DNA of 63,087 nt, the filler included, from Klebsormidium nitens (Eukaryota; Plantae; Klebsormidiophyceae): assembly GCA_000708835.1 (NCBI GenBank). It is 7 parts of 7 records of this genome, joined end to end, with 100 filler letters (N's around TTAATTAATTAA, not from the genome) between each part and the next. Parts side by side here need not be neighbours in the genome. Positions count along the whole stretch, not along the records: positions 1 to 6,755 come from DF238332.1; 6 more parts are not named here. One strand, given 5' to 3'. The notes under the pieces are model-generated. The model was not told where the DNA came from and did not search any database. It saw only the letters and a list, made by a program, of their open reading frames with translations. The position numbers and the translations under genes are program-made. Each line of letters opens with the position of its first letter. Position 1 is the first letter of the stretch. Of this stretch, positions 1 to 57,692 are shown piece by piece.

Positions 1-1990
1 CCCGTATCTCTCTCACCCCGAGTCGATTCTGTTCAGCGCCGCTTCACCGAACGTCCCTAGGCTGGACGACCGGGTGTTCGATTCGGCCATGCAGGCCTTC
101 AACGACCTCGCCGCCCGGTCGCGGATCCAGCACGTGTGCTCGCGCGTCGATTGCGCGCACCTCTACACGTGCGAGGTGGAGGCGGCCGAGGCAGAGGCCC
201 GGATGGCTGGCAACCCCCTGAGGCCGGAGCGAATGGAGGGGCCGAGCTCCGAGCTGGCCACGTACGCTTTTGGGCGGGACAAGGTCATCACCTTCGACGG
301 GACCTTCTTTGCCAACTCAAGCGCAATGCGGGATTCTGGCACGGAGGCGTCCTTGCATAGCATCTGCGAGCCCGATCCGGAAGCGCCGAGGGTCGCCGGG
401 GACTTCACTCCCCTGAGCGTGGGCGGGGTTCGACCTTCGGACGTGCCCTTGGAGGGCATTGATTGTCCGTGGAAGTACCGCAACGGCCTCTCGGAGTTGC
501 GGCCGGCCGTGCGTGCTCTTGCGCTCAGGTGGTGCAACTTCCGGAAGGCTCCAGCCCAAGGGAGCAACGCGCCTCTGAAGCCGGAGGAGTTTGTTGCCAT
601 GCGGGAGGGGCTTCCGGCAAATGTCGTTGCTCTGATCGACCTCGTAACGGACTCGGGAGCTTGTGGCGACCCCGCCGCGTGTGCGATTTGCAAGGCGGTG
701 CCGCGGCGGCCGTGGATGCAAGGGTTTCTCAAGGACGGGCCCGTGGGAGCGACCGGCTGGTGTCCGACTCACTTCCAGCCATACGGAGCCCTCCTCCACG
801 CCCTCCTTATTCCAAGGTACTCGTGGATCTTTGGGCACGTGGTCACGTTGAAGCTGCTGAGACACGTGTTGCTGGAGGGGCCTCTTGACGAGCGCGGAAT
901 TGCGTACCTCTCCAACGACGGCCCCATGCTGGCGGCCATCTTGCGCCTCCATTCGGTTGCCGGGGCGCTGTACGCCTTCCCGCCAACTCTCCGGCCGCTC
1001 GTGCGCGACATCTACGCCACGAATCTCCTCTGTTTCGAGCCGAGCGCAAACCGGCCCGGCACCTCCTCGCGATCGCCCTTGGCCGCCCTCCATGATGCTA
1101 CCGAGCATCTGCGGGCAATCGAAGGCGAGAGGCTGAAGCTCATGGGCCAGCTGGAGGCGGCCGCTATGGAGTATGCGGAGCGGCAAGGGGCGACTCTCAA
1201 GAGGGTCGCCAACTCGCTCCTGTTCGAGCTGGAGGTTCGCGAGCCCCCGTGCTACAGGACGGGCGGGTTCCTTCGAGCGCCATCGGCGGCCTACACTGAG
1301 CGGGTCGGCGCCGTCTCGGTCTACTCTTTCCACCCCCTGCTGTACGGCCGCCCTCAGTTTGTCGACTGGGAGGACGAGTCGGGCCGCGGCAAGCGGTCGA
1401 CGGAGGAACGGCTCACCCAACATTGCAGCGCCCCAAATCCTCGATCCTCCAAGGGGCGCGCTGGCGTGTTCATTGCGTGTTGTCAAGACCGGGCGCCGCT
1501 CGGCTACCACTGGCTGAAAGGGGGCGAGAGCGTCTCCGACCTGGGGACCGTTTTGATCACGCTGTTTCCGTTTAAGACGCTGCGGGGGCTCACGATCGTG
1601 GAGGACGCCGCTTGCAACGCCCAGGAGTGGTTCTTGAACCGGGTGCCTCAGTTGGCTAAGTTTATGCTCTTTTTGGTCGACCGATTCCACTCGGGACCCG
1701 TGAGCTGCGCACCAACAGGGGCAAAGCGCTACGCAACGCACACGTCCACGCGGTCCTTGTTCATCGACTCCTTTTCGCAGCATGGCCACACGATTACAAC
1801 CGCGTCGGAGGGCATCAATTCTGGGCTAAAGAGATGTGCAGCTAGCCTCCAGCAGATCACGAGCATCAAGCGGTTGATAAGCCGTGTGACGACCATTCTC
1901 GACACGCTTTTTGAACGGTCAAAGTATGCTGTCTATTGGAGCGAGTCTAGCAATTCGTTGAGAGACTCGATCAGGCGGGCGCGTGGCTGA
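1..1990 (+). mobile_element. KDZ (Kyakuja-Dileera-Zisupton)-type transposase ORF with Cys-cluster region, 5'-truncated by the window edge
   Basis: The 638-aa ORF stays open upstream to base 2. C-terminal motifs GVFIACC..GY..LKGGES, EDAACN..W.LNR.P, FLVDRFH and SEGINSGLK match the KDZ pattern (G.F..C.HG..GE, YD.AC, D.FH, EQ.NS.L). Family call is by motif recognition only. Confidence 0.7.
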
Positions 1991-1997
1991 CATTTGG

Positions 1998-2680
1998 CTC
2001 TATTACTCTATCATTCATTACCCACCGTCTCAAGTTCCACTCTCTTTGTACATTTTTCATGTGGTGATGGGGGCTTTTGAAGAGGTTCCGTATTTAAAGA
2101 ATCATAATAATCATAGTAATGGAGTAATAGAGATATGTACTTGAGGCTTCTTCATGGGTACATTCATGTGTGTGTGTGTGTGTGTGTTATAAAAGTAATA
2201 GAAGGTAATAAGCTATTTGGTGCTCAACGACTTTCCAACTTAAGGAAGGTTTGTCTTTCTTACCTTTTCAAGACACTCCATGCCCCTTTAATGCCTCCTC
2301 ACCACCAACACATGACCAATAAAGCAAGGGTAGAATCATGATTCGCCGATACTGTTGATTCCCTATATTACTCATTACTCTATTACCCACCGTTTCAAGT
2401 TCCATACTCTTTTGTACATTCGTCATGTGGTGATGGAGATTTTTGAAGAGGTTCCATATCTAAATAATCAATGGGTAATAGGGTAATAGGGTAACAGATA
2501 TGTGTGCTTTAGGCTTCTTTCATGGGTGCGGTCATGTGTGTGTGTGTGTGTTATAAGGTAATAAGAGGGTAATAAGCTATTTAGTACTCAACGACTTTAA
2601 GAAGGTTTGTCTTTCTTGCTTTCTCGAGTCACTATGTGCCCCTCCTCATTCCTTCTCACCACCCACCCATGATGATTCGA
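1998..2680. repeat. Diverged ~350-bp direct tandem duplication (copy A ~1998-2345, copy B ~2363-2680), each with a (GT)n tract
   Basis: Collinear shared blocks: attacccaccgt.tcaagttcca, catgtggtgatgg, ttttgaagaggttcc, aggcttc.ttcatggg, (GT)n-ttata, gtaataagctattt.gt.ctcaacgacttt, gaaggtttgtctttctt. Copy B contains the 3' end of the primase-helicase ORF. Confidence 0.9.
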
Positions 2681-5401
2681 GCAAAACGAGCACTTTTGCT
2701 CTGCGGCAGATTGTCGCAACTCTTTTGACCCTTTTGAAGCATTGACGAGCTCCTGAAGAGCTTTTGGATCTGTCATCCATGGCCCTTCTTCATCCTCGGT
2801 ATAGTCTAGCCGCTGCCAGGTGTCCACCCACTCCACGGTGGAGCTTAGAAGCTTGCCTCTATGGAGAGCCTCGCAGATAGCGCCCTGTGGGGAAAACCAC
2901 CAACCCTTGTGGGTCCGCACCCCTTGGATGGAGCGCGCCGCAGGCTTCATGTTAAAAATGGCATTCAGAGAGCGCATTAAGACGTTGACGTCGGTATGCC
3001 GATCCTCTTTGATGTCCAATTGAAGCAGAAACGTGTCATATGTCCTCTTGATGTCTGTCGATGCTACCCACGTTTCTAAAGAAGGATGAAAGCATCCGTT
3101 CTCGAGCAGCGCTTGCATCATGTTGACATGAGGTGGAATCGAGTGTTCCTTCAAGCCTTCCCCCCAAGCTGTGACCGGCATCTTTTGAGGATTCCAGTTG
3201 GATATTTCAATGGATGATAGATATCGGTGGAGGTGATATGCGGTCTCCGGTTTCTCCAACTCCTCCACAAGCTCATCAAAGTATTTCTTGTTTCCCATCT
3301 TGGCATTTGAGACTTGCTGGCAACAGTATCGACGATCGTCTGCCTCCCGTTTGACAGGCCAGTAATTGTTTGTGGTAAACACAATGTTGCTCTTGTCATC
3401 CACGCTGATAGGGTCTTGGCCTTTGCGCTCCATACACGTCGTCTCTTGAGTGATTAGGGACTTTATCCGGTCGTTCATCCGGTACGCTCCGCCCCAACTG
3501 CCACATTCGTCCAACACAATCAACAATCTATTGGCTGCTAGTGAGTTGAACTTGCCAATGATCTTTTCGATCTCGTTACAATACAAATAGTATATGGCGC
3601 CAAGGATCATCCGTCCAAAAAAGTCCCACAGTACAGACTTTCCGCATCCTTGCCCACTGCGGAACACGAGAGCCACACCAATCTTCCTCCAAGGCTTCTG
3701 AAGGGCGTGCGCCATCCAACAAAGGTTGTAATCGAACCGCTCCTTTGAGCCATCGCACAAGATGTTGCGGAGGTGCCACATGAGCTTTGGCATTTGTTCC
3801 TCGCACTCCACGAGCTCTGACTCCGTTAATCTGCAATCAAGCGGTTTGAATTTTAGCCCGGAGAACAGATTGAAGTGTCGTGAGGACCCCTTTGACGGGT
3901 CTGGCTCGAACACAATTCGATCGTATTCGCGGCGTCTGGAATCACTCTCCCAAAATTTGGCAACTTCTTTGCTCTTTCCCGATAGGCTCTGGAGTTGAAA
4001 GTTCCTGCAAACCTCCGAGAAGTCCCGGCCGGACCGGTGGATAGTCTCCTCGGGCTCAAGCTGCCCATTCGCGTCTCTCCAGTAGATGGTCTCAAGGTAG
4101 ACAGCCTTTGTCGAGCGGACGATGGCAAAGTAATGGTTCATGATACGCAAAGCGAGATTGAGCAAGTCCACTTTTGCTTTACTTGTTCGTACGTCATCTT
4201 CCCTTTTCCTCCCTTTCTCGTCGCTTTTATCTGTGGACGGCTCAAAGGGAAGAATGTAGCTCTCGCAAGTTCTGAAAAGTTCCGCTTCCGCTCTTAGAGG
4301 CAAACACTCGGGCCAGAAGTGAATGCCCAGCAGTTGCTTTGATCGATCAACGCACCCCGGACTGAGACAGCGGTACACAAGAATGCACCCGTTGCTCATG
4401 ATGCTAAACTGATTCGAATCGTGTTGATGACCATTTAAGCAAGTTCGCGTGCCGTTTGTCTTAAACTTTAGGATCTGCCACCCATTGGGGGTCCTTTCTC
4501 CAACACCGTTGAATGTGCTGGTGTCGTCTTGCACTTTATCGCGCAGCAATCTCTTGATCTCTTGGAGCGCACCTTCCAATCCGGGCAAGGCCTCCGTATT
4601 TTGCACATTACCAGAAGGTGCTGATGACATCGATGTTGAGATTTCAATACCAGATGAAGTGGCATTCGAGTCATTCTCACGTGACTTGTGCTTCTTTGGT
4701 GTCTCAATCTTGTCTGTTGCGGTCTGTTGAACGTGATCGTTGAGAAATCTTGTGAGCCAGAGAGGCATATTCTGGCATGCATCGAAGCTTGGAGGCCCGT
4801 TGAGCCATTCGTATGTCGCAAGCTTTCCGTGACCCTTCACGTAGCTTGCGGGGTGAGCAAAAACGACCCCTCCACCAGCTCGACCGTCAATACCATAGAC
4901 AGTGTCATCAACCTTGATGGTCTCGAAGTTACGGGTGCATTTGAGGCCGGGGGAAGTCGCCTTGAAATAAAAATGATACCCACCGGATCCTGATTGTGCT
5001 TTGAGTGTTTGAGGCTCGCCATATTCCTTAATAAGACGGTTCCAAAGCTCGATCCCCGGCTTTTTGTTATCTTTGCTGGACACATCAATATCAACCACGA
5101 ACAACCGACTGGGACGTGTCAGGATCGCAATTCCATTGGCGTCCTTCACCTGCCGCATTGCTTCATCATTAGAATGTTTCCACAATTCGGGCGTCGTGAT
5201 GTGTGCGTACTTGTGTGGAAAGTCAGCATCTTTTCTACCCTCTTTTTTATTCCAGAACATGCGCACGGGAATTGCATAGAGCCCAACATTGGAGAGTCCT
5301 TGGATCTCGTCTGCAACGGCTCGGGGCCCTACAGGCCTGGGGACACGAGCGGCCTGAGGTCTTGAGAGGCTGATCTGGGCGTCTGTCATTTCTTTTGACA
5401 T
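2597..5401 (-). CDS. Intronless primase-polymerase (bifunctional PrimPol/AEP) + Zn-ribbon + superfamily-3 (D5/DUF5906-like) helicase, 934 aa
   Basis: N-terminal NGIAILT..LFVVDID, SGSGGYHFYF and IDGRAGGGVVFAHPAS are PrimPol motifs. Central C.NGH.HDSN.F...YRCLSPGC is a Zn-binding motif. C-terminal SGQGCGKS (Walker A), LIVLDE (Walker B), FTTN (motif C) and DDRRY. Confidence 0.9.
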   Translation of the reverse strand: MSKEMTDAQISLSRPQAARVPRPVGPRAVADEIQGLSNVGLYAIPVRMFWNKKEGRKDADFPHKYAHITTPELWKHSNDEAMRQVKDANGIAILTRPSRLFVVDIDVSSKDNKKPGIELWNRLIKEYGEPQTLKAQSGSGGYHFYFKATSPGLKCTRNFETIKVDDTVYGIDGRAGGGVVFAHPASYVKGHGKLATYEWLNGPPSFDACQNMPLWLTRFLNDHVQQTATDKIETPKKHKSRENDSNATSSGIEISTSMSSAPSGNVQNTEALPGLEGALQEIKRLLRDKVQDDTSTFNGVGERTPNGWQILKFKTNGTRTCLNGHQHDSNQFSIMSNGCILVYRCLSPGCVDRSKQLLGIHFWPECLPLRAEAELFRTCESYILPFEPSTDKSDEKGRKREDDVRTSKAKVDLLNLALRIMNHYFAIVRSTKAVYLETIYWRDANGQLEPEETIHRSGRDFSEVCRNFQLQSLSGKSKEVAKFWESDSRRREYDRIVFEPDPSKGSSRHFNLFSGLKFKPLDCRLTESELVECEEQMPKLMWHLRNILCDGSKERFDYNLCWMAHALQKPWRKIGVALVFRSGQGCGKSVLWDFFGRMILGAIYYLYCNEIEKIIGKFNSLAANRLLIVLDECGSWGGAYRMNDRIKSLITQETTCMERKGQDPISVDDKSNIVFTTNNYWPVKREADDRRYCCQQVSNAKMGNKKYFDELVEELEKPETAYHLHRYLSSIEISNWNPQKMPVTAWGEGLKEHSIPPHVNMMQALLENGCFHPSLETWVASTDIKRTYDTFLLQLDIKEDRHTDVNVLMRSLNAIFNMKPAARSIQGVRTHKGWWFSPQGAICEALHRGKLLSSTVEWVDTWQRLDYTEDEEGPWMTDPKALQELVNASKGSKELRQSAAEQKCSFCSNHHGWVVRRNEEGHIVTRESKKDKPS

Positions 5402-5451
5402 TATGAGAAGATTTTAAATGAGGCGTTTCAAACGCGCGTGCGTTTAACCTT

Positions 5452-5841
5452 TTGTCGTTCAAATTTTCTTACCATGACATTAGTACTGACATGGAGTCGC
5501 AAAATGAAACCGCTTCAAATGACTGCTGCAATTGCAGAACGTGCAAATCTATCAGCCAATTCTATGTAAAGCACCCAGATGCTCGTAAGACTTACACGAA
5601 AAGGTACTACTACCGACATAGGGATGCAATCTTACTGGCTCAGGCTTTTGAGCGCTACAAAAATGGGCATGCATCTCAGCAAAAGACTCTCAAGCGCCTT
5701 TTCGATGCCGGCTTCCCGGTGAAGAGTCCGTGTCAAGCATGGCAGCACGATGATCATCAAATGGCGTCTTCCGGCACGTCAGATGATATTAAAGTACCCT
5801 CGCTCCGTTTGGGCGCGTTCACAAGCATCCAAGTGTCCTGA
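5452..5841 (+). CDS. Small intronless hypothetical protein (likely start M at 5491) with CxCxxC and a basic Tyr-rich helix
   Basis: ORF packed divergently from the primase-helicase and convergent with the recombinase (36-bp gap). Contains CCNCRTC and RKTYTKRYYYRHRDAIL. Confidence 0.5.
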   Translation: MSFKFSYHDISTDMESQNETASNDCCNCRTCKSISQFYVKHPDARKTYTKRYYYRHRDAILLAQAFERYKNGHASQQKTLKRLFDAGFPVKSPCQAWQHDDHQMASSGTSDDIKVPSLRLGAFTSIQVS

Positions 5842-5877
5842 AGGCAACTGCCAGGTGGCGAGCAGATTGTGAATCGT

Positions 5878-6755
5878 TCAAAATCGGATCCGAGACCCAT
5901 CTGGGTTAAATTTCTTCTCGTATGTTTGCTGGGCCATAGCGGCCGTATGCAGCATGCTCCGCGCAAGGTCGTCGCGCTCGGCTATGCTTGGAGCATCTTT
6001 GAAGAGATTGCTCACACAAATTTTTCGCAGCAGGCAACTGCCAACGCTTGCATCCTTAAACAGGCCGCTTGCGCAAAATTTCGTGAGGTAGTTTCGACTC
6101 ATTGGCTTGTCGGGCGACCTCATTCGAGACAGGAGGTACTTTCGAGGAAAGACTTGTAGCGATTCGGCTATCACGTTGTTACACCTTGTGCTCATGTCGA
6201 TTTCGGTAGGCCCGTGGTGCTTTGCCGTCTTGAAATCCTTCAGAATGAGTCGAAACTGGTCTTTTGCAAACTCGAGCAGGTAGTTTCCGGGACCGGACAT
6301 GAGTATGCGCGCATCAGGCGTCTTGATGTCATCAAAGCGAACAATGGGACACTCTGAATAATCATTGCGGATGGCTGGCTGGTACGTAAACAGACACAAG
6401 ATCAGATGCCGCATTAGAATCACTTTGTCTCCAATAGTCAACTCTTCGGGAGATTTGGGAAGGATCTTGCGATTGACGTAACGCTGCAGCTCCACTCTTC
6501 GGTCGTTGATCTCCGACAAGCTCTTCCAGTTTGCCGCTTCGCGCTCCGTCAAAACCTGTGGCGGCGGCTTGGCATCCTTCATCTCCTTCCGGACCTGCAT
6601 GTACCTCGTATAGTATGCATCGTACAGCGGCTGATCATTGGGAAAGACTTTGCGCACCACAACGAGCAGAGGGTTTAGGCCAGTTGCTTGCATTGAGAGC
6701 TTTGTAGGATACCTGTCCTGAAAATGCTTTATGATGGCGTCAACATCCTTGACCC
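5878..6755 (-). CDS. Tyrosine recombinase/integrase of the type carried by Polinton-like viruses, virophages and giant viruses; 5' end lies in the gap
   Basis: Catalytic order R (PAIRNDY), K (FKTAK), xLLR (SCLLRK), H (MLHT), Y (QQTYEK). The frame stays open upstream of the tracked M (VKDVDAIIKHFQDRYPTKLS) up to the N gap at 6756. Confidence 0.75.
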
Positions 6756-7189
6756 NNNNNNNNNNNNNNNNNNNNNNNNNNNNNNNNNNNNNNNNNNNNT
6801 TAATTAATTAANNNNNNNNNNNNNNNNNNNNNNNNNNNNNNNNNNNNNNNNNNNNGCAACACTCACACTCACACTTACACTTCTACTCACACGAATACGC
6901 AATCTCCTACGCAATCAGGTCCATCCGACTTCGAAGACTTCGGAACGCCACCTCCTAATCTACCAACCAAACGCTATCCCGCAGAACCGGGACTAGCACC
7001 AAATCTACGACTCTAACTACTGGTGGTCTTCATCGTCGCCGTCGACGCCTGAACGCCACCCAAACTATCTTCTCGGTCGCCGGCCGCCGCGCGAACTCCT
7101 TCCGCGCGCGCGCGGGCTCGCGTACAGCAGGGGATGACGAAGTGGCACTGTCCGCGAGGGGGTGACTCTTGGGCAGCACAGACCATTCT

Positions 7190-13123: not shown

Positions 13124-13464
13124 AAATCCAATTGAATGCAATAAGGCGAGGAATATTGCTACACTGTTCTCAATCAACGAGCCTGCAAATCTTACATGCA
13201 GTGGACGACCCGGAAGGCCTGTTACAACCTGCCCCTATTGTAACGATTACGACTGGTTAAGCCTAACCTCGTTCTCGACAGGATTTCGTTGACCTGCGGG
13301 TTAGCGAAACGGCGGTGGTTACGTCTTAACGACGCACTGCGTGGCNGTCTGCAAGACGCCGTAANNNNNNNNNNNNNNNNNNNNNNNNNNNNNNNNNNNN
13401 NNNNNNNNTTAATTAATTAANNNNNNNNNNNNNNNNNNNNNNNNNNNNNNNNNNNNNNNNNNNN

Positions 13465-17614: not shown

Positions 17615-17900
17615 NNNNNNNNNNNNNNNNNNNNNNNNNNNNNNNNNNNNNNNNNNNNTTAATTAATTAANNNNNNNNNNNNNNNNNNNNNNNNNNNNNN
17701 NNNNNNNNNNNNNNAACAGGGTCGCCAACGGCCGAAAATGCTTGCGGTGGGCCCGAATTCGCCGGTCCAAAAAACCAAATGTTGAGCAAACAACAGTTAT
17801 TGGCAAATAATGCTTTCTGTTGGTGCAGGAGAGAGTTCCAGGGACGGTGTCAGGCTCACGTTCTGAGTGTGCGGGGTATTGAGGGAACCCAGCTGGTGGC

Positions 17901-19010: not shown

Positions 19011-21435
19011 CTATGCCTCCCAACGAATGATGTATGCTCTAAGCTTATACACCGCTAGGTTCACGGTTCCGTTTGGAATCCTGAAGCTGGGGTTGCAAGT
19101 GCGCTCGCCGCGCGGTAGCTCCAGCGGCCCCCTCATGTTAGTCTGCCTGCCGAATTTTTGGAGCGCCAACCACCAGTTGGTCGCCGGTGCTTCAGGAACG
19201 ATTAGCACACAATCCGTTTGGAAAAGCCGGATCGCTTGGACGACTTGGCTGAGCAGGCAAACCGGCGGGAAGATCCAGGCGACTTCCCCCGGGGCTAGTA
19301 GAAGGCTCCAGTCGACGCGCATGGCGTCCGCTGCAAGGGCCTCGGGCGTCGAATGCAAGCTCAGGAATCTCTCCGCCACGTGCCACGTGTCCGACCCAAA
19401 CAAGTCGACGGCGGGCTCCACCCCGAAGCCATCCAGGACTGCGCGCACCGCCTCCTGCGCCAGCCCCGAGTCCGAGCTGTCTTGGAATTTGCTGAGGTCG
19501 TCTTCTTCTTGCATTTCTTCTCGTGGCTTCCACTGTGCTACCATGTCGAAGTCCGCCTCGATGCACAACTCGAACAGCAGAAGCAGCGCTACGTTAACAT
19601 CCAGCGCGCGGCTGTTCATTGCGTTCACTGCCCGTACCGCGGCCTGGTTATCCCCTCTGAGGAGCACCGCCGCTCCTTTGAGCGCGCCGCCTGCTCGCTC
19701 TCGCGCCTCTTTCAGCACTGGGAAGAATGCCACCATCTCGCGCGCCATGCTGGACATGCTCATCTCCGTTTCCGAGAGATTCCCGATCACCGTCAGCTTC
19801 TCTTCCCCCGGAATCTGAATCTTTCCCCCGAATCCCGTATCTGATGCGTCCGAGCCGGCTACGACTGCCACCTGACGTGGGAACCAGCGCCTCCCGTTCC
19901 ACTCGTCGAGGCGCTACAAGAAGAGCCTTGCCGTTTCCTTCGCCGCCTCCAGCGTCTCAAAGACGTCATCCCACGTCAGCTTCCCCCAAATGGCTGCAAA
20001 AAGTGGACTGCTGTACAGAGCCGCCGGGAGGACTGCCGGGCCCACTGAGATTGTTTTGCCGGCCACCTTAGCCAGCTCCCGGAGTGTAACTACCCCGCTC
20101 TCCGCAAGCGCTCTGAGCGCCCCTTTCAGCTTCTCCATCTTTGTGGCTGACACGACGAACCGTCGGTTCACCGTGTCGATGAGGAAACCTAGCGACGGGC
20201 CTTCTTGCTGGGGCCAGAAAGCTGCACTTTGGCAGGCTAAAAAAGGCGCCGAGCAGGGTTAGCGGCTTGACCACGATCACCGTGGCCCACACGCACCTCC
20301 AGAAATCCTCGCATCCCGTCAGTCCGTCGTCGAGAGAGCTCGAGACAGGAACGGATCGAAGCCGCAGCTCCTTGGCTGCCTCCTGCGTGAGCAGCGTGTA
20401 TAGAAAGCACGCTTCCGACCAGCCGAGATACATGCCGTTGTAGTGCATGTACACTTGGCCCACTTTGATGCCGAAGTACTTCCGGTAGGCGGGGTGAATG
20501 AGGAGGTGGTAATACCCCGCCTTGAAGTCCCAAGTGGTGAAGAACCCCCGCTCAGTCAAGAAGGTGAGGACCTCCCTGAGCGTCTTGTATTTGAACGCCT
20601 GCCGCTTGGAGAAGAGGTTAACATACCGGGCGTTGACGACAAGCCGACCTTTTGGGAGGTTAACGACTCCCAAGGGGTAAACCACCTTTGGCTTGCCGTC
20701 CTTTGGGGCGTAAACCTCGAGCGTGCCGTTCACCACCATCTTGACCACCTCGCCAATCGCAAATTCGCTGTTGTCGTAGAATTATCGGTGGTTTTCAAAT
20801 GCCACCGGATGAGGGACTTGACCCGTCAGCATGGCCTCCGCCTCTTTCGGGCCCATTGTCCGGATGAGCATCGCTTGAACTTGCTCTCGTTTCTTCGGAT
20901 CCGCCTCTGCTGTTCCAACAAACCGTGGTTTCGCCCCAGAGGCTCATCATTTTTAACACGCGCTTGGAAGATGCGCGGTTCGAGTTCTGCAGCATTTCTT
21001 CCCAAGTGGGTAGATGCCGCTCGAAGCTGCCCGCGACGAAATCTTCCGGGTCGAATGTGTGGGATCCCACGTTTTTCACCCAGTCTGTCAGTTCCGCTTT
21101 CTGCGTTTGGGACACCTCCGTTTCGCTTCTGGGGCCCGACATCGAGTCAAGGGTTTCTCGCACCGCTTTGCGAAGTTGTTCTCCGTTTGGGGTTACGCCT
21201 TGCCTCACTTTGAGTCCCGCAAAGACTCGTAGGTGCAGGATTGTAGAAGCGGCGCGCTCGCTTCCATGAGGGGATCTTCGTTCAGTTCGAGCTCGTTGTC
21301 TTCCAATTCGTTTTCCGGGGAGAGCGGCTCTGGCTCTGGGTCGCAGCCCAGGGGATCTGACGGCCTGGCGCACTTTTCTGTTTCTTGATCTCCTCCGCCC
21401 GGGGATTCCGGAACCGATTTTTTCCGTTCACCCAT
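19011..21435 (-). pseudogene. DIRS-type pol: reverse transcriptase, RNase H and C-terminal methyltransferase-like domain, frameshifted
   Basis: RT: GRLVVNARYVN, TWDFKAGYYHL, GMYLGWSEAC, SLDDGL (YxDD decayed). RNase H: SDASDTGFGG, RE, LRGDNQAAV, WKPREEMQEEDDLSK. MT-like: VDLFGS...DAMRVDW...WIFPP...LIVPEAPATNWW. Confidence 0.85.
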
Positions 21436-23952: not shown

Positions 23953-24186
23953 TGCTCAGTGCCAACTCACACCAGCCAGGGGGAGGGTCTTCTTTGCAGT
24001 GTTAACACCCCCCAAGAAAACAAACGTCTCTTGATGGCGCCCTGTCAGGCGCCTTCTCTTTCTGAAACGTNNNNNNNNNNNNNNNNNNNNNNNNNNNNNN
24101 NNNNNNNNNNNNNNTTAATTAATTAANNNNNNNNNNNNNNNNNNNNNNNNNNNNNNNNNNNNNNNNNNNNAGAGTTGGGTGGGAAT

Positions 24187-27100
24187 CAGGGTTTCCCACG
24201 GACTTTCGTCCCGGCCGGCCAGCTGCCGGCGATCGGACCCCCCGATTCTACCGGCTGGAACCGGCCGGACGCCGGCTGCCTATTACGGCAGCTGGAGCAC
24301 CGTTATCACTGGCTGGCACGTGACCCGGCCGGGCCCCGGGCCCGTGACCGTGATCCGATCAGGCGCGGCCGTGTGCGCGCGCCGCGCTCAAGCTACCGTC
24401 GCGCGCGGCCGCCCTTGAGCGGCGCGCGGTGCGGGCGGGCGGCCGCCGCGGTCACGTCGCTGGCTGTGGCGGCACGCGGCCGGGATCCCGAGTCCGCCAC
24501 TGGCCATATGCAAATCAGTGCATGGCCGCTTGTACGTAATTCAATCTGGCTCTGCCAGACATACTGCCGACACTCCGATGACTCTGGCTAGCAGGCCAGT
24601 ACGACAATGAACCGGCCTACCTTTTCATGTTGAGTTCGTCCCTTCCAATAGCAGCCCAAGGCCCAGGCTTTCTTGCATACCTAAAGTCTTATCATGAGGC
24701 AGTTTGACGGATATGTTAGATAGTGCTATGTAGCTTTTGCATGTCCTATAAGTGTATCAGCACCATATATAGATTCATTACAGTTGATGGACCAATGGGT
24801 TATTGCCAGTTAGTGCTTAAATTCATCCGTTGCACATCACTAAATCCCACGTATGCACCATGGAAGCCTATGGCTCATGTGGCGACGGCATGATAAGAGA
24901 ATATCATAAGAGACAATATAGACGGTTCACCGAAATTTCAAGTCCTAAATTAGGAAGCTTGCGTTTGTGTACCGTACAGTCTCTTCTTCTTAGACCCGGA
25001 CTTCCAAATCTTGATCGCCGGGCCAAAATCGTACTCCTTCCTAGGGGGCCCGACGAGTCCTATCCGCATAAGATTATCGAGCAACTCAATTTCTATCCTA
25101 TTGCGCAGCTTCGACTTGATGAGATTCTGTCGAGAGAAGCCGCGCTCACAGCATGCTGTGCTAACGAACATTATCATACCTACTTGCGTTAGTCGCAATA
25201 AACACGGAACTAATTCGAAGTAGGTGGGGTTCTTTGCAATCTTCGACCACGTGTCTTCCAAAGTGCATCCCTGGAAGGTGGTCGATCCCCACTGCTTGAA
25301 AGTGCGGAACTCCTGCCTAAGCGTGCCATAATCACAATCAACGAACGGAGCGAAGACCTTCCCGTCCACAACCCTCTCAACGCAATACAAGCCCCACAAC
25401 AACTTCAGCTCCGGCAAACCGTAGGTGGCAAGCTGATCTTTGTTTGACGGAAAGGCTGCCGCATCTGGGGCCAGGATACCAAACGCTGCCACCTTCGGGG
25501 CCTCCGCAAATCGCGCCTCTAAGTTTGAGATTACTTTCTCCACCCAAGCCGTGGCGAACCCGTTACTTGCCGCCTCCTCTCCTGCCGCCAGCTCGATCGT
25601 GTGACCGTGATAGGTGAGGGGCACCGGCTGTAGGCTGTCCAAAGCTGCCCTCAGTTCCAACTCTCTGAGCCTCTTCAGCTCTCCGAATTGCCCAAGGTAG
25701 CTCTGCACCTCCATAAAGTTGATGGCCCCACCCTGCCGGAGCACGTTCCGAGCTATCTCCATGTTGCGCTCCAGGTCCGGTAGCTCCGCCCCCATACGGT
25801 TTGCGACTTCCTGCCGCTGCTGCTCCCGCGCCGTCCGCTCTTCTCTCGACTCCTGCCCCTCCAGACCCTCCAAAAACTTTGCCAGGAAACCGCCAAGAGG
25901 CCCGGCAGGTCCGTTTGCACCCGCAAAGTCCTCCACCAGCTCAACTTTGGCACCCTCGACCAGGCCTTGGATGGCCGTCAGATCCACATGGTCCCCTTGA
26001 AAGGCCTTGCTGAGGCGGGCGAGGGTAGACGTGGCGTCGGCCAGCATGTGCAGGCCATGCAACACCCTGAAGCTGCACAATTGCTTGTACGCTGCAGGGT
26101 CCTCCTGTTGCATAAAGCCCACCACTGCGGGGAGCACGCGGCAGAGTTTCTTCAAGCACTCGTTGCGGGACAGCCAACGAACCGCAAAGATTCGTGTTGG
26201 CACCAGATCCGGAAGGCCGAGCTCCTCCTCCAACTCGCGCAACGCCCCCAGCTTCTTTGCGCTTCGCGAGAAGACAGCGGCGATCGCATTGACGAGCTTG
26301 TCAAGCTCCACAGCGAAGGGCAGACTGTCTGCCGCACCCCCCGCAGCGAGGTTGAGCCGGTGGGCGATGCAGTGGATGGCCAGCATGAAGGGGAAGAGCC
26401 TTTGCAGCCTCGCCGCCACCCCGTTCTGAGCACCTGCAAAAATGGCAAAGAGGGAGTGATTAGAAGACCAGACTTGTGGCGCATGAATGTTCAGCAGTAC
26501 TAAGTCACAAGTCATCTTTCCTGGTTGAAAGCAGTGAGAAGAATCTCGAATCTGCAGTCAGAATCAGACGCCAAAATGCAGACCTTTCAAGACAAAGAGC
26601 ATGCCCTCAACACTTCTGACGCTGTCCAACATCTAAATCCGATGCGTCTAGTACAGCAAGTGCATCAAATCTGTGCATATTGTGGCTTCAGTATAGCTAA
26701 ATAGGGATATAGATGGCAAGAACACGCTGATTATCTGGTTGCCAATAGTACATTTTGAAACACAGCAAGAGCAAAGTATGTACCTGTCATCACGCTCGCC
26801 CCATCAGAGCCAAAGCAAAGGACCTTCTCGATGGGAATGCCAAAGAGGTTCAGGCACTCCAAGACCCGCGCGCAAAGGGAGGCTGCATCGGTCTCGTTCA
26901 CTTGCAGCAAACCCAAGAACACGGTGGAGACCTGCAAACCAAAAGCAATCGCTTTGCTATGTCCATTGTTGACCAACTTGGCATTGATTAGTCTAGCAAG
27001 AGGTGCAAGCTATGCTGGACAGGATGCTCAAGTTGTCATCTTTGCAGGACATGCAACTTAGCAGATCTATTCATTGAAGCTACTTTTCAAGGACCCGAGC

Positions 27101-28907
27101 TCAGAATCAGCCAGCTTCCAAGCTTGCCCAGAACCAAAATAATAAATGCATGGAAGCATACAACCAGTTTTCGATTGTAAGCAAAAGACAGCAGAGCCTT
27201 TAAGCAACTGGCACAACGTGTGTCTCAAGATTTCAAGATGCCGCAACCCTTACCTTTTTCTCGGCTGTGATGTATTTGCAGTACACGATCATATGCTGAT
27301 GAACACTGATGTCCGTCGACTCGTCGATGCCGATGGACACCACAGGACTCTGCTTGAGTGCCTCCTTCTGCGCCTGCATGATTGCCTCTGCGATTGCGTC
27401 TATGAACTGATAGGCTGCCTTATTGTTATGATACAACTCGGAGGGGACCTGAGCACCTGTGTCTTTCAACAGATCTAGGAGCGTACCATACTGAGCGAGA
27501 GCCACGTCCTTCTTCGCCAACCAGTAGGCAGCCTGGAAGAGGTTGATCGCTGTTTGGTTCTCTAAAGAGATGGCCTGATCAATGGCCTTCTCCATTACAG
27601 CTGCTCCGCCTTGGTCCTCAACACATTGGCGGTGCTCCCTAGACGTGGCATGGTCAGAGAGGGCATTTGACTTGAAGTTGATGGAGCCTGTGGTCGCAAA
27701 AGGGCTGTCAAACTTGCGCTCAGACTTCCTGCATAGCTTGCAGAAGAGCTTCGCGCGCTTGGTGTNNNNNNNNNNNNNNNNNNNNNNNNNNNNNNNNNNN
27801 NNNNNNNNNNNNNNNNNNNNNNNNNNNNNNNNNNNNNNNNNNNNNNNNNNNNNNNNNNNNNNNNNNNNNNNNNNNNNNNNNNNNNNNNNNNNNNNNNNNN
27901 NNNNNNNNNNNNNNNNNNNNNNNNNNNNNNNNNNNNNNNNNNNNNNNNNNNNNNNNNNNNNNNNNNNNNNNNNNNNNNNNACCATGCCGCTAGGGAGCCA
28001 AAACTATGAGTGCCGGAATTGGCCCTACCTGATCCTGCGAACGCCCTCTTCCACTATCTCATGCCAGGGATGGTTTGTCGCCCAGTGATCCTTCACCTCT
28101 GCCCTCCAGTTCAACTTGCCGGGAACAAGAGCTTTCTTTTCCCTGTTCGTCAAGTGAACCTTTGCTTGCACCCTCTCCCTGGCTGCCACTGGGATTGGGA
28201 CAACAGCAGGCTGCCCAACAGTCTCAGCAGCCAACCCAGTCTGCTCAAGCCCTGCTTCAAGCTCAATCAGATCTGCATCGCTGGTCCCCTCAACCAAGGC
28301 CATAAGTCCTGGCTCCAGGAAGCCCGGTGCACGACCAACTGGCTGGTCATTACCGCCTGCCGCTGCATCTGGAGGCCTTGTGGACGGGCCTGTGCCATCA
28401 TTCCCCCCTACTGTTTGTTTGGACCTCTTAGGCGGGGTACTCCTCGGCAAGAAATAGCTCCTGATGGACTGCATTCTGCCTGTTGCAAGGAGAGCGACTG
28501 CACTGTGCAGGGTTGCAGGCACGTTGCGAGTTCACTGCTCAAGGTTCGACGCCTATTGAACAGGCCAGAACCGAAGCAATCTATCGATGGACAGCCTGAG
28601 TCTGAAAGGAGCTTAGGCCTGAAAGTAGAGGACCCGGCACTGAGGAGACAATGGCAGCGGCAGCCTGCTTCCCTATTGGGAACTTGGCATGCAATGGAAG
28701 TCAAAATGGCCGCCTGCGGCGGCCTGCCCTGCAGAAGACGTAACTAGGCTGGGCCGGCATCTGCCAAATCCTGTCGGCCAGCCGACAGGGTCTGTTTTCT
28801 GCCGGCTCCGGGCCGGCTTGGCAGCCGGCAGGGTGCCTTCGGCACCGGCCGGACTTCGTTCACCGCCGGCCAGGTCCAAGTGGGAGTGCCGGCTGTGGGA
28901 AACCCTG
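24187..28907 (-). mobile_element. Full-length hAT DNA transposon
   Basis: Perfect 13-bp TIRs (CAGGGTTTCCCAC 24187-24199 / GTGGGAAACCCTG 28895-28907), perfect 8-bp TSD GTGGGAAT (24179-24186, 28908-28915), CCGG-rich subterminal regions. Confidence 0.95.
24950..28522 (-). CDS. hAT transposase (ZNF862-like), spliced and partly in a gap
   Basis: Zn-finger LFCKLC...DHATSREH, IGIDESTD, FGSDGASVMTG, HCIAHRLNL, RWLSR and STACCERGFS..NLIKSKLRNR (hAT dimerization). GT-AG junctions near 26779 and 26434. Confidence 0.85.
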
Positions 28908-30367
28908 GTGGGAATGCAAGGTCGCGCCAACTGGCGGCCCGTCGGATGAGACGCGTACGCCGGGGGGCGGCCGCGTGCCGGCGGGCGCTGGCGTTGCGAA
29001 CCAGACGTACAGACGGTTGCGTCACGGTGACGAAGCATGGCAGTTGAGTAGGTTCTAAACGTCAGAGGAGGCGCAACCAGGTTCAGCAGCTTAGATATCA
29101 TAATAACCTGAACCACGTTGAAGCTCAGGCTTGACGCGGCGCGGGCGCACCAACTGTAGGCCTAAGCGACTAGAAGCAACTCTATCCGACGCTCAGACTG
29201 CTCAGGAAAGCAAAGCTTGGAGCAGGTTTGGTAGAAGCTGATGACACTCCAACGTAAGCGCCGATAGAAGAAATGGAGGATCCCCTGGAGTACGACCTGC
29301 TTCATGATTCCCCGAGGGATCACGCACCGGATTGTGCTCGCTTGTCGCAAGGACACCTCCGCCAAACAGCTCGGCAGCCTCCGCTTGTTGAACAAAACCT
29401 GGAAGGCCGCAATCGAAGCTGGTGTGTTTGGCCCCCATGGCCGGTTGATCATGTGCAGTCAAAAAAGTACCAGGTTTGCGCTGCTAGTGGGCGCCCATTG
29501 CGGTATGAATCAAGTTATGAGGTGCGCCCCGCGGTTGGTCTCCTAGACGAGCGGTTTAGGAACCTGTAATGATCTGTCCTGTGCCGAGCCGCAATGAGTT
29601 GGATCTACTTCTGAAGCCAGGGGTGACCGGGGGATCCACGTCAGCTTGCTGAACAAGTTGATGTATATCTTGGAAGAAAAATTCAACACTAGACGGAGTT
29701 AGTAAGGAGGTTTATACCCCTCGCTGCATAATGATGCATTCCTCACCAATCAGGAGAGTGGAACACAGAGTACTTCGGAATTCGGAGAAAAGGACCGGGA
29801 CCCATCGCTAGGCTACTTTGAGACACGCTTCTACTTTGCTGGGGAGGATCGCATCTTCTGCGTTGGAATGTATGTAAGACAGAGTCCCCGAGAAGAGCCT
29901 GAGCGCGTTTTGTCTTATGAGCCGCACACTGCTCAAGAGAGTACTAACGGGCCGTGAATATATACAAGTTTATCACTTTCATCATAGTATTGCATGATAT
30001 ACATAGGTGCAATCATATACATCTTCCTCATACTACCATATACCCCATATACCCCCCTTTCAAAGCCTTCATCATCATCAATCCCCCTTAGGTCCCCGGA
30101 CTCCGGGACCCCCTATACCCCTATTTCAAAGCCTTCANNNNNNNNNNNNNNNNNNNNNNNNNNNNNNNNNNNNNNNNNNNNTTAATTAATTAANNNNNNN
30201 NNNNNNNNNNNNNNNNNNNNNNNNNNNNNNNNNNNNNACTCCTATACCTGGCGATGGTCGCCGGAGCGCGGGTGCCAAACCGCACGGCGGCCCCTGGGAG
30301 GCGGCGACGACCTCGACTTACGAGGAATTATACACCCTTTTTACCCCGCACGCGGCATGACCCGTAG

Positions 30368-54626: not shown

Positions 54627-54926
54627 CCAAGGTATGATTCCGAATAAATAAATAATTATTTGCATTCGGAAAGTTGGAAACTCCGGATAAGCAGTCGGAT
54701 TCTGCCTTTTCGGAAACCGAAAATAATTGCTAAATCCCGTTCGGAAAGTAATTTGTAGGCCGTATGAGTATACGGTACATACCGTTTTCGGCTACAAACC
54801 TCAAATATGTAGGTACCGAGGTACCTCCTGGCCATTCGGATTTAGGGTCGGAAAGTGGAAAATAATACATGATTTGGGCTCGCATTCGCTAAAATAATTG
54901 CCTTTTTCGAGCATTCGGAATCATAC
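54627..54926. repeat. TTCGGAA-rich ~300-bp unit with a 14-bp inverted repeat, overlapping the Harbinger left TIR
   Basis: gtatgattccgaat (54632-54645) / attcggaatcatac (54913-54926). The left end matches the inverted copy at 7246-7294. Confidence 0.6.
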
Positions 54927-56400
54927 ACTGTTCACACATGTTTTCTGCAGGTCCAGGCAGGTACCGGTCGCCGACGGGCGGTCCGACCGGAAAATGCTGG
55001 GTTGTTCACACTACCATTCTGGGCAGGCGCCGGCGATCACCGGCCGCGGGGCCGGACGTCCGCAGCAGATTTTTATGGTCGAGACGGACGGTACCAGGGA
55101 ACATGTCATCTTTGGAGAGCTGATTGCTGTAGCATCATTCTATGTCTACACTGCACTCAAAGGACATTACATCGAGGCCGCCGTCATGAAGCTCTTGAAA
55201 AGCATCATGGATCTTGGGGCTGCCATGCTCATGATCATGGTTGCATTATCTGGATACATAGAAGAGAGTAGCATGAACTTTCGCGGAAGAGACTGGTGGG
55301 TTTTCCCTAAACAACAAACGGAATGGGACGTTATTCAAGGAGAGGTCTGGAGGCTTTCTCCTGCCTTGCTTGATGAGAAGTGGGTAGAGAATTACAGAAT
55401 GTCATACATAACTTTCGAGGAGCTTGTCGAGGATCTGACACCATACATCCAGCAAGAGGATACAAGATGGAGGAAAGCTGTACCTGTAGATAAGGCTGTG
55501 GCAATGGTTCTATTTCGTCTTGCACATGGTTATTCACCAAAACATGTGGGACGCTTTTATGGAGTAGGGGGAAGCACCATTGTCAAATATACAGATCTGA
55601 TTGTAGATGCACTCTCCGATCAAAACAAGTTGCGCAGCAAGTACATACAAGTGCCCTCGGGAACCAACCTCAAGAGAATCATAGCACGGTTCAAGGCAGG
55701 CACAGGATTGGACAACATGTGTGGGGCCATTGATGGGTCTCATATCAAACTGTACAAGAAACCAGCAGCTAAGTATGTGCCCGCACAATACTGGAGCAGG
55801 CACGATATGCACTCTATCTTACTACAGGGAATCTGCGACTACGACAAGGTCTTCTGGAGTGTCGCTTGCCGGCAGCCTGGGGGGTGTCATGATGCCGCCC
55901 ACTTGAGGACCACCCAGATCTGGGAGGAATTGAGAGGAGGGCAAGTGTTACAAGAGCCAGTCGTTAGAATTCAAGGCAAAGACATCAAGCCCTACATTGT
56001 GGGTGATAGTGCATACCCTCTGATGTCGTTTCTGCTTAAAGCTTTCAACAATAGAGCCACGGGCAGCCCTGATCAGAATCTGTTTGACAAGCACCTTAGG
56101 AAAGGGAGAGTCAAGATAGAGAATGCTTTTGGCATACTGAAGAATAGATGGCAGATCCTTAAGAACTTGAATGTAGTGCTGCCTTCAGCACCAAAAGTTG
56201 TGATAACATGTTGTGTCCTTCACAACATATGCCAAAGGGCAGGCGAACCAGGAGACAATGTGGACTTATTAGATCCGCAGAATAACAATCTAAATGACGA
56301 GCACATTCCCCCCTTGATGTCGGAATATGCTAGCAAGAGGATTGGCCAAGACTTTCGAGCTGCATTGTTGAGAGACTTTGCTTTGAGAAACATAGAGTAG
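54898..56400 (+). CDS. Harbinger/PIF DDE transposase (HARBI1-like); true start probably downstream, ~55076
   Basis: ENYRMSYITFEELV, LFRLAHGYS, CGAIDGSHI, LQGICD, PGGCHDAAHL, VGDSAYPL, RVKIENAFGILKNRWQIL and CCVLHNIC; DDE triad present. Confidence 0.95.
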   Translation: MPFSSIRNHTLFTHVFCRSRQVPVADGRSDRKMLGCSHYHSGQAPAITGRGAGRPQQIFMVETDGTREHVIFGELIAVASFYVYTALKGHYIEAAVMKLLKSIMDLGAAMLMIMVALSGYIEESSMNFRGRDWWVFPKQQTEWDVIQGEVWRLSPALLDEKWVENYRMSYITFEELVEDLTPYIQQEDTRWRKAVPVDKAVAMVLFRLAHGYSPKHVGRFYGVGGSTIVKYTDLIVDALSDQNKLRSKYIQVPSGTNLKRIIARFKAGTGLDNMCGAIDGSHIKLYKKPAAKYVPAQYWSRHDMHSILLQGICDYDKVFWSVACRQPGGCHDAAHLRTTQIWEELRGGQVLQEPVVRIQGKDIKPYIVGDSAYPLMSFLLKAFNNRATGSPDQNLFDKHLRKGRVKIENAFGILKNRWQILKNLNVVLPSAPKVVITCCVLHNICQRAGEPGDNVDLLDPQNNNLNDEHIPPLMSEYASKRIGQDFRAALLRDFALRNIE

Positions 56401-57692
56401 AAGTTGCACAGAAACGTATGCTGAAAACAATAACCTGTAGACCTGAGAAATAGAGAAGAAGTACTTACATGTCATCATGGATCCTGCATGCCCCTGCGCA
56501 TCTTCTCCAGCTCAGTCTGGTACTTCAATTTAATGTCCAGCATTTGCAGATTTGTGTCTGCCTTGTCCTTTGCAATACGTTCTTCAACCTCCAGTGCCTT
56601 TGCTGCCATGCTAGCGTACACCTTCGTGAAGTTGTCGATGCTTCTTGCTAGCGCTCCCCCAGGAGAGCCCTTCAAACGCTTGTTCTTCCCATTGATCTGA
56701 CCATTGATTCCAGGTTTCTTTTCAAACTTTTCCCTGGGGCTTCCCCGGCCTGGATCCAGCTCGTCCTCCGTCGGCGCAGAAACGCGGCGCTTGGCCCTCT
56801 CTGACTCCGCAGAGGTGGGCTGGGGGCTGGGGGTTGGGGGCTGGGAACTAGCAGGGGACAGGACTTGCTCTGAATGCTCCCCCGCTGCAGGCTGGTCAAC
56901 CGCGTCTGATTCGGCGCCCGCATTCTCCCCAACATACTCTCCCTCCTCATCCCCCGCAACGTTGCCTCCTGTCGATATGACTGGCGGGGCAGGCACCTCA
57001 AGAAGCCCGCTGTCAATGGCTCCTGGAATACCGATGACCTTGGGCAACTTCTTCAGGTAAGGAGCCAGGACTTCGAAGAGGACCCATGAGCTATTCACAG
57101 ACCCCGTGCTGGTTTTCTTCTTCAATTCTGCCGCAAACCTCTTCTTGAGACTGTTGATCTTCTCCTGGCACTGCTTGACTGTGAATGGGGCTACACCCTC
57201 TGGGAGTTCCTTGTTTATCTGCTCTGTCACAAAGCTCCAGTTGTGAGTTTTAAAATTCCCTTGCTTGATCCTTAGAAACTCCTCTCCCCAAACGCCAACG
57301 AACTTCTGGTCCAGCTCTGGGTTCCAATTAGCAGCCACTTTCTTGGGAGGTGCTGCAGCAGCAGCATGTGCAGCAGGTGCGGGGATGGCAGCGCCATCTG
57401 CTGCATTGGCGGTCGCCATGTTGGCGCTCTCCTTAAGAGTTGCTCTCCTGCCAGCACTTCAAGCTAAGCAGCCTTTCTTTCCGGAGTTCAAAGTTTCCCG
57501 CCTGAACTGCGACTTCAAGGTCACGTGACGAGGTACCTGCCATCGCCGGCCCTGCCTGGCCCAGCCTGGCCAGGACCTGTACCCGGCCGAAAGTCCTGGC
57601 GGCCGGCGGTGGCCAAATTCGGAGTTTCTTGGCGAAACGACCTGGCCTGGCCTGCCGGATTCGCGGTTTCCGGGCATGTGTGAACAGTGTAT
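54923..57692. mobile_element. Autonomous-looking PIF/Harbinger transposon (transposase + Myb/SANT, convergent)
   Basis: Perfect 18-bp inverted repeat atacactgttcacacatg (54923-54940) / catgtgtgaacagtgtat (57675-57692), enclosing two intact ORFs. The right flank is a gap, so the TSD cannot be seen. Confidence 0.85.
56475..57419 (-). CDS. Myb/SANT-like (trihelix/MADF) DNA-binding protein of the Harbinger element
   Basis: NWNPELDQKFVGVW...NWSFVTEQIN...TVKQCQEKINSLKKRF...SSWVLFEVL, followed by a low-complexity linker and a C-terminal coiled coil. Confidence 0.9.
   Translation of the reverse strand: MATANAADGAAIPAPAAHAAAAAPPKKVAANWNPELDQKFVGVWGEEFLRIKQGNFKTHNWSFVTEQINKELPEGVAPFTVKQCQEKINSLKKRFAAELKKKTSTGSVNSSWVLFEVLAPYLKKLPKVIGIPGAIDSGLLEVPAPPVISTGGNVAGDEEGEYVGENAGAESDAVDQPAAGEHSEQVLSPASSQPPTPSPQPTSAESERAKRRVSAPTEDELDPGRGSPREKFEKKPGINGQINGKNKRLKGSPGGALARSIDNFTKVYASMAAKALEVEERIAKDKADTNLQMLDIKLKYQTELEKMRRGMQDP

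Follow-up and report, generated by a model that had tools for sequence, protein, structure and literature searches.

What kind of mobile element joins virus-type replication genes to a tyrosine recombinase (YR) in an algal genome is the question raised by the first scaffold (DF238332.1, positions 1-6755) of the window analyzed here, which is a 63,087-nucleotide stretch of DNA from the assembly of Klebsormidium nitens (GCA_000708835.1). An earlier note had described three closely spaced open reading frames (ORFs) on this scaffold, and the present analysis reproduced them: the frames at 2597-5401 (-), 5452/5491-5841 (+), and 5878-6755 (-) are all open, at identical coordinates, with spacers of 50-89 bp and then 36 bp. 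A fourth gene was overlooked, namely, an ORF at 47-1990 (+) that encodes a transposase of the Kyakuja-Dileera-Zisupton (KDZ) type. The locus is one piece of a composite element that exists in multiple copies, and in it the KDZ gene lies tail-to-tail with a virus-type module consisting of a primase-polymerase (PrimPol) helicase, a small ORF, and a YR. The reading that is tentatively preferred, although it is rated somewhat short of an even chance, is that of a giant KDZ DNA transposon that has captured the module from a Polinton-like virus (PLV) and moves with it as one unit. In all three readings still under consideration, a KDZ transposase and a PLV-type module for replication and recombination are stably linked. 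The features of the scaffold are as follows.

1-46: terminus of an unrelated high-copy repeat that interrupts the KDZ gene and does not belong to the element itself
47-1990 (+): KDZ-type DDE transposase gene, 3' half (ESM Atlas, conserved residues)
1998-2327: diverged second copy of the helicase 3' end and downstream spacer (84% identity)
2363-2596: AT-rich spacer that separates the two convergent genes; contains repeated GTAATA/TATTAC motifs and one imperfect inverted repeat
2597-5401 (-): PrimPol, Cys/His cluster, and superfamily-3 (NrS-1-like) helicase; 934 amino acids, unbroken (PF09250, PF19263)
5452-5841 (+): small ORF, first ATG at 5491; 129/116 amino acids, divergent from the helicase
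5878-6755 (-): YR of the virophage/PLV/giant-virus (OLV11-like) type; 291 codons, 5' end cut by the scaffold end
6756-6855: artificial scaffold linker, non-biological (44 N, 12-base tag, 44 N)

The linker block occurs six times in the window (6756-6855, 13365-13464, 17615-17714, 24071-24170, 30138-30237, and 57693-57792), and is therefore an artificial joiner with no gap to close. The window is composed of seven unrelated scaffolds that were artificially joined, and features that span the linkers are artefacts. The suggestion that virion genes lie in or beyond a gap at 6756 is wrong for this window, and closing the gap or treating the genes beyond 6855 as flanks was rejected, because the block is a linker and the DNA past it belongs to other scaffolds. 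The intron-rich genes found there are not neighbours of the element, and the DNA beyond 6855 matched none of the 250 collected proteins. The scaffold itself terminates within both outer genes (KDZ and YR). Public gene model P0036, in which the YR is spliced onto the helicase of the same locus, is on a record of exactly 6,755 bases, and error-free contigs of runs X1 and X2 extend 49 bases past the scaffold end.

The KDZ-type transposase gene

In the ESM Atlas, the best matches of the KDZ ORF scored 0.95, PF18758 was assigned to 39-47% of the cluster members, all 10 of the 10 best family matches were in the same family or clan, and the KDZ clusters were 100% eukaryotic. Direct Pfam matches to the ORF were weak or absent. 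Weak matches to PF18717 (CxC4) and PF18758, all under the Pfam cut-off, were obtained for six of the 14 paralogs scanned, and the AlphaFold model (predicted local distance difference test, pLDDT, 39) was too poor for a fold search. Residues D99, D535, D560/H563, and E603, which we take to be catalytic, were kept in 13-15 of the 15 aligned sequences. The full-length paralogs measure 1,254-1,331 amino acids and contain a CxC4-like domain upstream. The gene is multicopy: its named K. nitens gene models number 19 and are located on different records. Of its 18 listed variants, 12 fell at third codon positions (p 0.004; a small, non-random list).

The frame is open from 2 to 1990, and its residues 1-15 differ from those of all 14 paralogs, which agree among themselves there. 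In the read contigs, the first bin had a far higher summed depth, and a variety of loose ends was found at 46/47 (the summed depths were not used as copy numbers). Bases 1-46 are foreign, and represent the terminus of a high-copy repeat inserted in the KDZ gene. This copy of the element is probably non-autonomous because the gene is interrupted at base 46/47. The repeat ends in CA, which we take as a sign of the end of a long terminal repeat, and has diverse flanks in the read contigs; it is possibly such an end.

Linkage of the KDZ gene and the module across copies

The context of the other copies was read from locus tags, matching record sizes, and short read contigs. The resulting lists are incomplete (cluster representatives, size limits, and an expansion of 30 clusters), and because the copies are related to one another, the p values given here overstate the significance. 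For four of the six other close K. nitens helicase models (KFL_008920020/030, 003240015/020, 002740165/170, and 011360030/040), the adjacent locus tag was a KDZ model whose record had the same size; this held for neither of the two distant models. One of the two unlinked close models is on a record of only 5,744 bases. Among JGI contigs of at least 5 kb that were paired by identical size, KDZ accompanied 7/9 close versus 0/7 distant helicases (Fisher p 0.003), as well as 5/11 close versus 0/17 distant YRs (Fisher p 0.005). A close YR was defined by at least 70% identity to P0004, or just under, and two close-YR contigs shorter than 5 kb were left out. The linked copies occur in many parts of the KDZ tree, as far out as a paralog with 78% identity, and therefore do not stem from one recent duplication.

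Read contigs and gene models add to this picture. Contigs of diverged copies, obtained from runs of two studies, pass from a KDZ-like stop codon into the spacer (the joint at 1990-2371 in runs X2 and X4), and a diverged contig of run X4 bridges helicase, small ORF, and YR (5237-5982) with 74 differing letters and two gaps. Furthermore, six gene models run from the YR into the helicase (P0036, P0044, P0045, P0046, P0057, and P0268), which indicates the same order and strand in other copies; these public models splice the two genes into false fusion proteins. The earlier view of the locus is thus retained in part. The module is of PLV or virophage type, its YR family being that of virophage, PLV-like, and giant-virus contigs, and it is multicopy; the minimal three-gene element is not supported, as the KDZ gene is repeatedly attached on the helicase side.

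Host origin

The close named relatives are K. nitens proteins with 68-91% identity, some of which are on records of 103-115 kb. Hundreds of short contigs with 85-100% identity map to the stretch in all four runs from two studies. No confirmed relatives were found in viral contigs, JGI metagenome contigs, or prokaryote genomes. A bacterial or phage contaminant, or a set of chance neighbours on a mis-assembled scaffold, is most improbable. The helicase does match phage proteins in 370 records, though all are below 60% identity, and the top 10 share 25-29% identity over at most 42% of the query. Recurrence of the close homologues on long K. nitens records largely refutes this explanation; the exclusively eukaryotic KDZ clusters, the absence of relatives in prokaryote genomes, and the absence of any phage match to the YR argue in the same direction. 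Error-free contigs of runs X1 and X2 also speak against it, as they span 1908-2560, across the KDZ-spacer junction. Giant-virus inserts have been reported in the same species (PMC5294986).

The primase-helicase and the small ORF

The helicase ORF contained a PrimPol domain (PF09250, residues 79-215, E 6e-14) and PF19263 (residues 581-691, E 1e-19), both of which passed the Pfam cut-offs, and also matched phage primase families and the NrS-1-type primase-helicase chains 6k9e and 6k9c in the PDB (E 7e-11). It retains the DxD, H, D, Walker A, Walker B, motif C, and RR motifs, to which we presume the usual catalytic roles. A related PrimPol fused to a D5-type helicase, and not to an NrS-1-like one, was observed in P0050 and P0025 (JGI contig of 77,129 bases) beside a YR of a distant clade, and is a helicase swap within the family.

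The small ORF had no Pfam match, no relative among 467 viral ORFs from IMG/VR loci with related YRs, and only weak Atlas leads (0.85-0.87), two of which were viral clusters. It likely encodes a small DNA-binding protein. The spacer between helicase and small ORF (5402-5490) has a short perfect central inverted repeat, with a fold z of only -0.70, and this repeat is a candidate bidirectional promoter or binding site.

The tyrosine recombinase and its viral relatives

The ORF at 5878-6755 matched no Pfam or PHROG family, and a sequence-profile search against the PDB found nothing. Its predicted model (mean pLDDT 71) placed Cre on top of the Foldseek matches in the PDB (E 6e-3, probability 0.98). 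In VIA-align, Cre was matched with Z 7.8 (root mean square deviation 13.6, 187 residues aligned), with XerD, XerA, and XerH among the rows that follow; no match reached Z 8 or higher. Against BFVD, 12 matches were obtained at E<=0.001, which were giant-virus and Qinghai Lake virophage proteins. The R, K, R, H, and Y residues were kept in 79-85 of the 87 aligned relatives, and the first histidine of the HxxR motif is replaced throughout the family. Three concordant searches and the conserved residues thus give moderate fold support to the predicted YR identity. The label OLV11-like derives from the virophage and AaV fold matches and from PMC4642659, and not from an alignment to OLV11. The protein is approximately 60 N-terminal residues shorter than its full-length relatives (about 350 amino acids), as the scaffold ends there.

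The YR profile matched 3,077 clusters, and two motif scans of IMG/VR yielded 29 loci, all of which contained this YR family and none of which contained a KDZ gene. Genes beside such viral YRs encode a virophage capsid (L001), a capsid of nucleocytoplasmic large DNA viruses (L023), an A32 ATPase (L004), and a PrimPol-D5 protein (L025). The Pfam scan behind these neighbours rests on 79 of the 467 ORFs at 15 of the 29 loci, and most PLV capsids have no Pfam model, so that blanks say little.

These neighbours are among the reasons for considering a complete endogenous PLV of the PgVV group, whose capsid and packaging genes would lie upstream of the YR, off the scaffold, and whose lineage would have fixed the KDZ gene. 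The YR would then integrate the virus, and KDZ would be a passenger or a second, Teratorn-like route of spreading. This explanation is a real possibility, yet less probable than not. It is close behind the KDZ transposon, since the simplest role for an intact YR is that of an integrase, and since the capsid loci of the species match the close helicase copies. The pairing of YR and primase-helicase is usual in capsid-bearing endogenous PLVs (PMC10120064, PMC4642659), and seven PgVV-group capsid loci are given for K. nitens, several of which share 71-86% identity with the reference capsid (PMC10120064, table S5). On the other hand, none of the seven capsid-bearing contigs is equal in size to any of the 25 element-bearing records, a weak point, as contigs inside larger scaffolds cannot be matched. 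A record of 12,742 bases that contains YR, helicase, and KDZ is shorter than every capsid contig listed, and hence no capsid is reported on it. Assigning the capsid-bearing contigs to scaffolds from their numbers was rejected as guesswork. It is also conceivable that the capsid loci are those of the distant, KDZ-less YR/helicase subfamilies. The Klebsormidium YRs grouped in trees apart from all sampled IMG/VR viral YRs and near ENA, Logan, and JGI proteins, with weakly supported deep nodes.

On the fragment itself, the PLV-type module (primase-superfamily-3 helicase and OLV11-like YR) is present, and is common to PLVs without defining them. PLVs measure 15-30 kb and have terminal inverted repeats, whereas both ends of the present element lie off the scaffold. 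No double jelly-roll (PgVV-like) capsid was found among the four ORFs of the 6,755-base scaffold, which ends within the YR, and no minor capsid protein or A32 packaging ATPase is present on the same truncated fragment. Protein-primed PolB and the rve integrase of Polinton/Maverick elements were absent from it in the Pfam scan. Separately, P0008-P0021, P0035, P0063, P0065, P0070, and P0080 were observed to be additional Klebsormidium-associated YR/PrimPol-helicase subfamilies with 35-55% identity and no KDZ link among those listed; they are candidates for the capsid-bearing PLVs of the host.

Nature and mechanism of the composite element

The four genes, their order, and their repeated co-occurrence are established, and the residues expected to serve in priming, in unwinding, in recombination by a tyrosine enzyme, and in DDE transposition are retained; a giant KDZ transposon with a captured module is the preferred reading. 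A KDZ-type DDE transposase and multiple dispersed copies, which characterize KDZ transposons, are both present. In such an element, excision and insertion of the entire unit would fall to the DDE transposase, acting on ends that are not on this scaffold. An excised or circular form would be primed and copied by the PrimPol-helicase, and the YR would serve to circularize the element or to resolve dimers. The replication module may in this way turn a cut-and-paste element into a self-copying one, the capsid genes being assumed lost. The full form of this proposal, a capsid-less self-synthesizing eukaryotic transposon that combines KDZ insertion with a PLV-derived primase-polymerase, superfamily-3 helicase, and YR for copying and resolving an extrachromosomal form, is doubtful. 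If true, such a KDZ/PLV hybrid would represent a virus-to-transposon transition in a streptophyte alga close to land plants.

Several observations weigh against the KDZ transposon. No element end, terminal inverted repeat, or target-site duplication was found on the 6,755-base scaffold. The GC content of the KDZ gene (0.635) differs from that of the module (about 0.50), and some KDZ paralogs are followed by other DNA after the stop codon (loose ends at 1971 and 1991). Among those listed, a helicase neighbour is lacking for 15 of the 19 named K. nitens KDZ models. Co-divergence was not significant in Mantel tests for any of the three gene pairs (p 0.23-0.42, unequal fragments); this includes the helicase-YR pair, and thus either the copies are mosaics or the test lacks power. 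Only six of the 18 listed helicase variants were at third codon positions. Lastly, K. nitens has seven PLV capsid loci, which are about as numerous and as diverged as the close helicase copies.

The DNA between the KDZ gene and the helicase contributes to this question. The two stop codons are 606 bases apart, and 365 of these bases are due to a tandem repeat in which the helicase 3' end and the spacer recur with 84% identity (1998-2327 versus 2363-2684; 263 of 314 aligned bases identical). Within 1-6755, GTAATA (seven occurrences) and TATTAC (three occurrences) are confined to 1991-2596. The imperfect inverted repeat of the spacer (2374-2389/2472-2487) had a fold z of -2.35 in this copy and -0.99 in the other copy, the hairpin being significant in one copy only. 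The AT-rich spacer at 2363-2596 is a candidate att site, origin, or terminator. Loose ends were also detected at 2001/2002 in runs X4 and X5.

Two separate elements could have produced this arrangement if a YR-mobilized replicon, with or without a capsid, integrated site-specifically behind the KDZ stop codon of one family and hitchhiked with it. The junction is 7-10 bases past the KDZ stop codon in several diverged copies, other KDZ paralogs have different downstream DNA, and the GC step and lack of co-divergence would be expected, although the latter holds within the module as well. The tandem remnant at 1998-2327 fits two insertions at one site, but unequal crossover between copies explains it equally, and no duplicated attL/attR core was found. 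The preference of one element for another, unrelated one as its target has a precedent in Ngaro retrotransposons within mavirus-like elements (PMC8547959). Overall, this explanation is unlikely, and it would grade into the KDZ transposon once KDZ carries the insert along.

A YR transposon of the Crypton or DIRS type was also considered and rejected. Cryptons have a YR as their only enzyme and DIRS elements combine it with a reverse transcriptase, whereas the YR here is linked to a primase-helicase and no reverse transcriptase is present on the fragment.

Other mobile sequences in the window

Other scaffolds of the window contain additional transposon-like ORFs. A reverse transcriptase-like ORF (PF00078, E 7e-4, under the cut-off) adjoins a second ORF at 19011-19913 and 20068-20781 (-), and this second ORF, by eye, presumably resembles the RNase H/methylase part of DIRS-type retrotransposons. 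Pieces of a hAT-like transposase (PF05699, E 0.03, under the cut-off) were observed at 24950-26557 (-) and 27233-28003 (-). A tail-to-tail ORF pair is present at 54898-56400 (+) and 56475-57458 (-), which we take, by eye, to resemble a Harbinger transposase and its Myb/SANT partner.

Comparison with known systems

Giant KDZ elements that reach 30 kb and contain extra genes as well as fixed nested insertions have been described (PMC12477816), and KDZ elements generate 7-8 bp target-site duplications (PMC12730594). The K. nitens element resembles the giant KDZ transposons of brown and green algae and fungi in its transposase of approximately 1,300 amino acids with a CxC4-like domain, its multiple copies, its extra genes, and the broken transposases of some copies (PMC12477816, PMC12730594). 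It differs in its cargo, a primase-helicase and a YR, which does not appear in the available text of these reports, and its termini and duplications are not on the fragment. OLV11-like YRs and fusions of primase and superfamily-3 helicase have been described in PLVs (PMC4642659). Endogenous PgVV-group PLVs share with the element the YR family, the primase-helicase fusion, compact intronless genes, and integration in algal genomes (PMC4642659, PMC10120064), but the present fragment has no capsid or ATPase gene, and a KDZ DDE gene is attached in many copies. The "Plavaka giant repeats" of Amoebidium are likewise intron-poor and contain genes for a DDE-type transposase and a tyrosine recombinase (10.1101/2024.01.08.574619); in contrast, Plavaka is unrelated to KDZ (PMC12730594), and no primase-helicase is mentioned in the accessible part of the description.

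The literature searched, with subscription papers and Repbase entries outside its scope, provided no description of a KDZ gene paired with a PLV-type module, and no papers that combine Zisupton with Klebsormidium or with virus, primase, and tyrosine recombinase. The element is a real, undescribed composite mobile element, all parts of which come from known families, and its nearest precedent as a combination is Teratorn, a fusion of piggyBac and an alloherpesvirus. Both join a cut-and-paste DDE transposase stably to the replication genes of a DNA virus (PMC10175614). Teratorn belongs to another transposase superfamily and virus lineage and has a full set of virion genes, with no YR noted in the part of the source consulted, whereas the present locus is a 6.7-kb fragment. 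Teratorn was called the first fusion of a cut-and-paste transposon and a DNA virus in a 2023 review, which left its generality open (PMC10175614), and a 2019 review suggested that a primase-coupled polymerase together with a suitable integrase could yield new giant transposons (PMC6431247). The K. nitens element family makes the questions of both reviews testable in a culturable alga.

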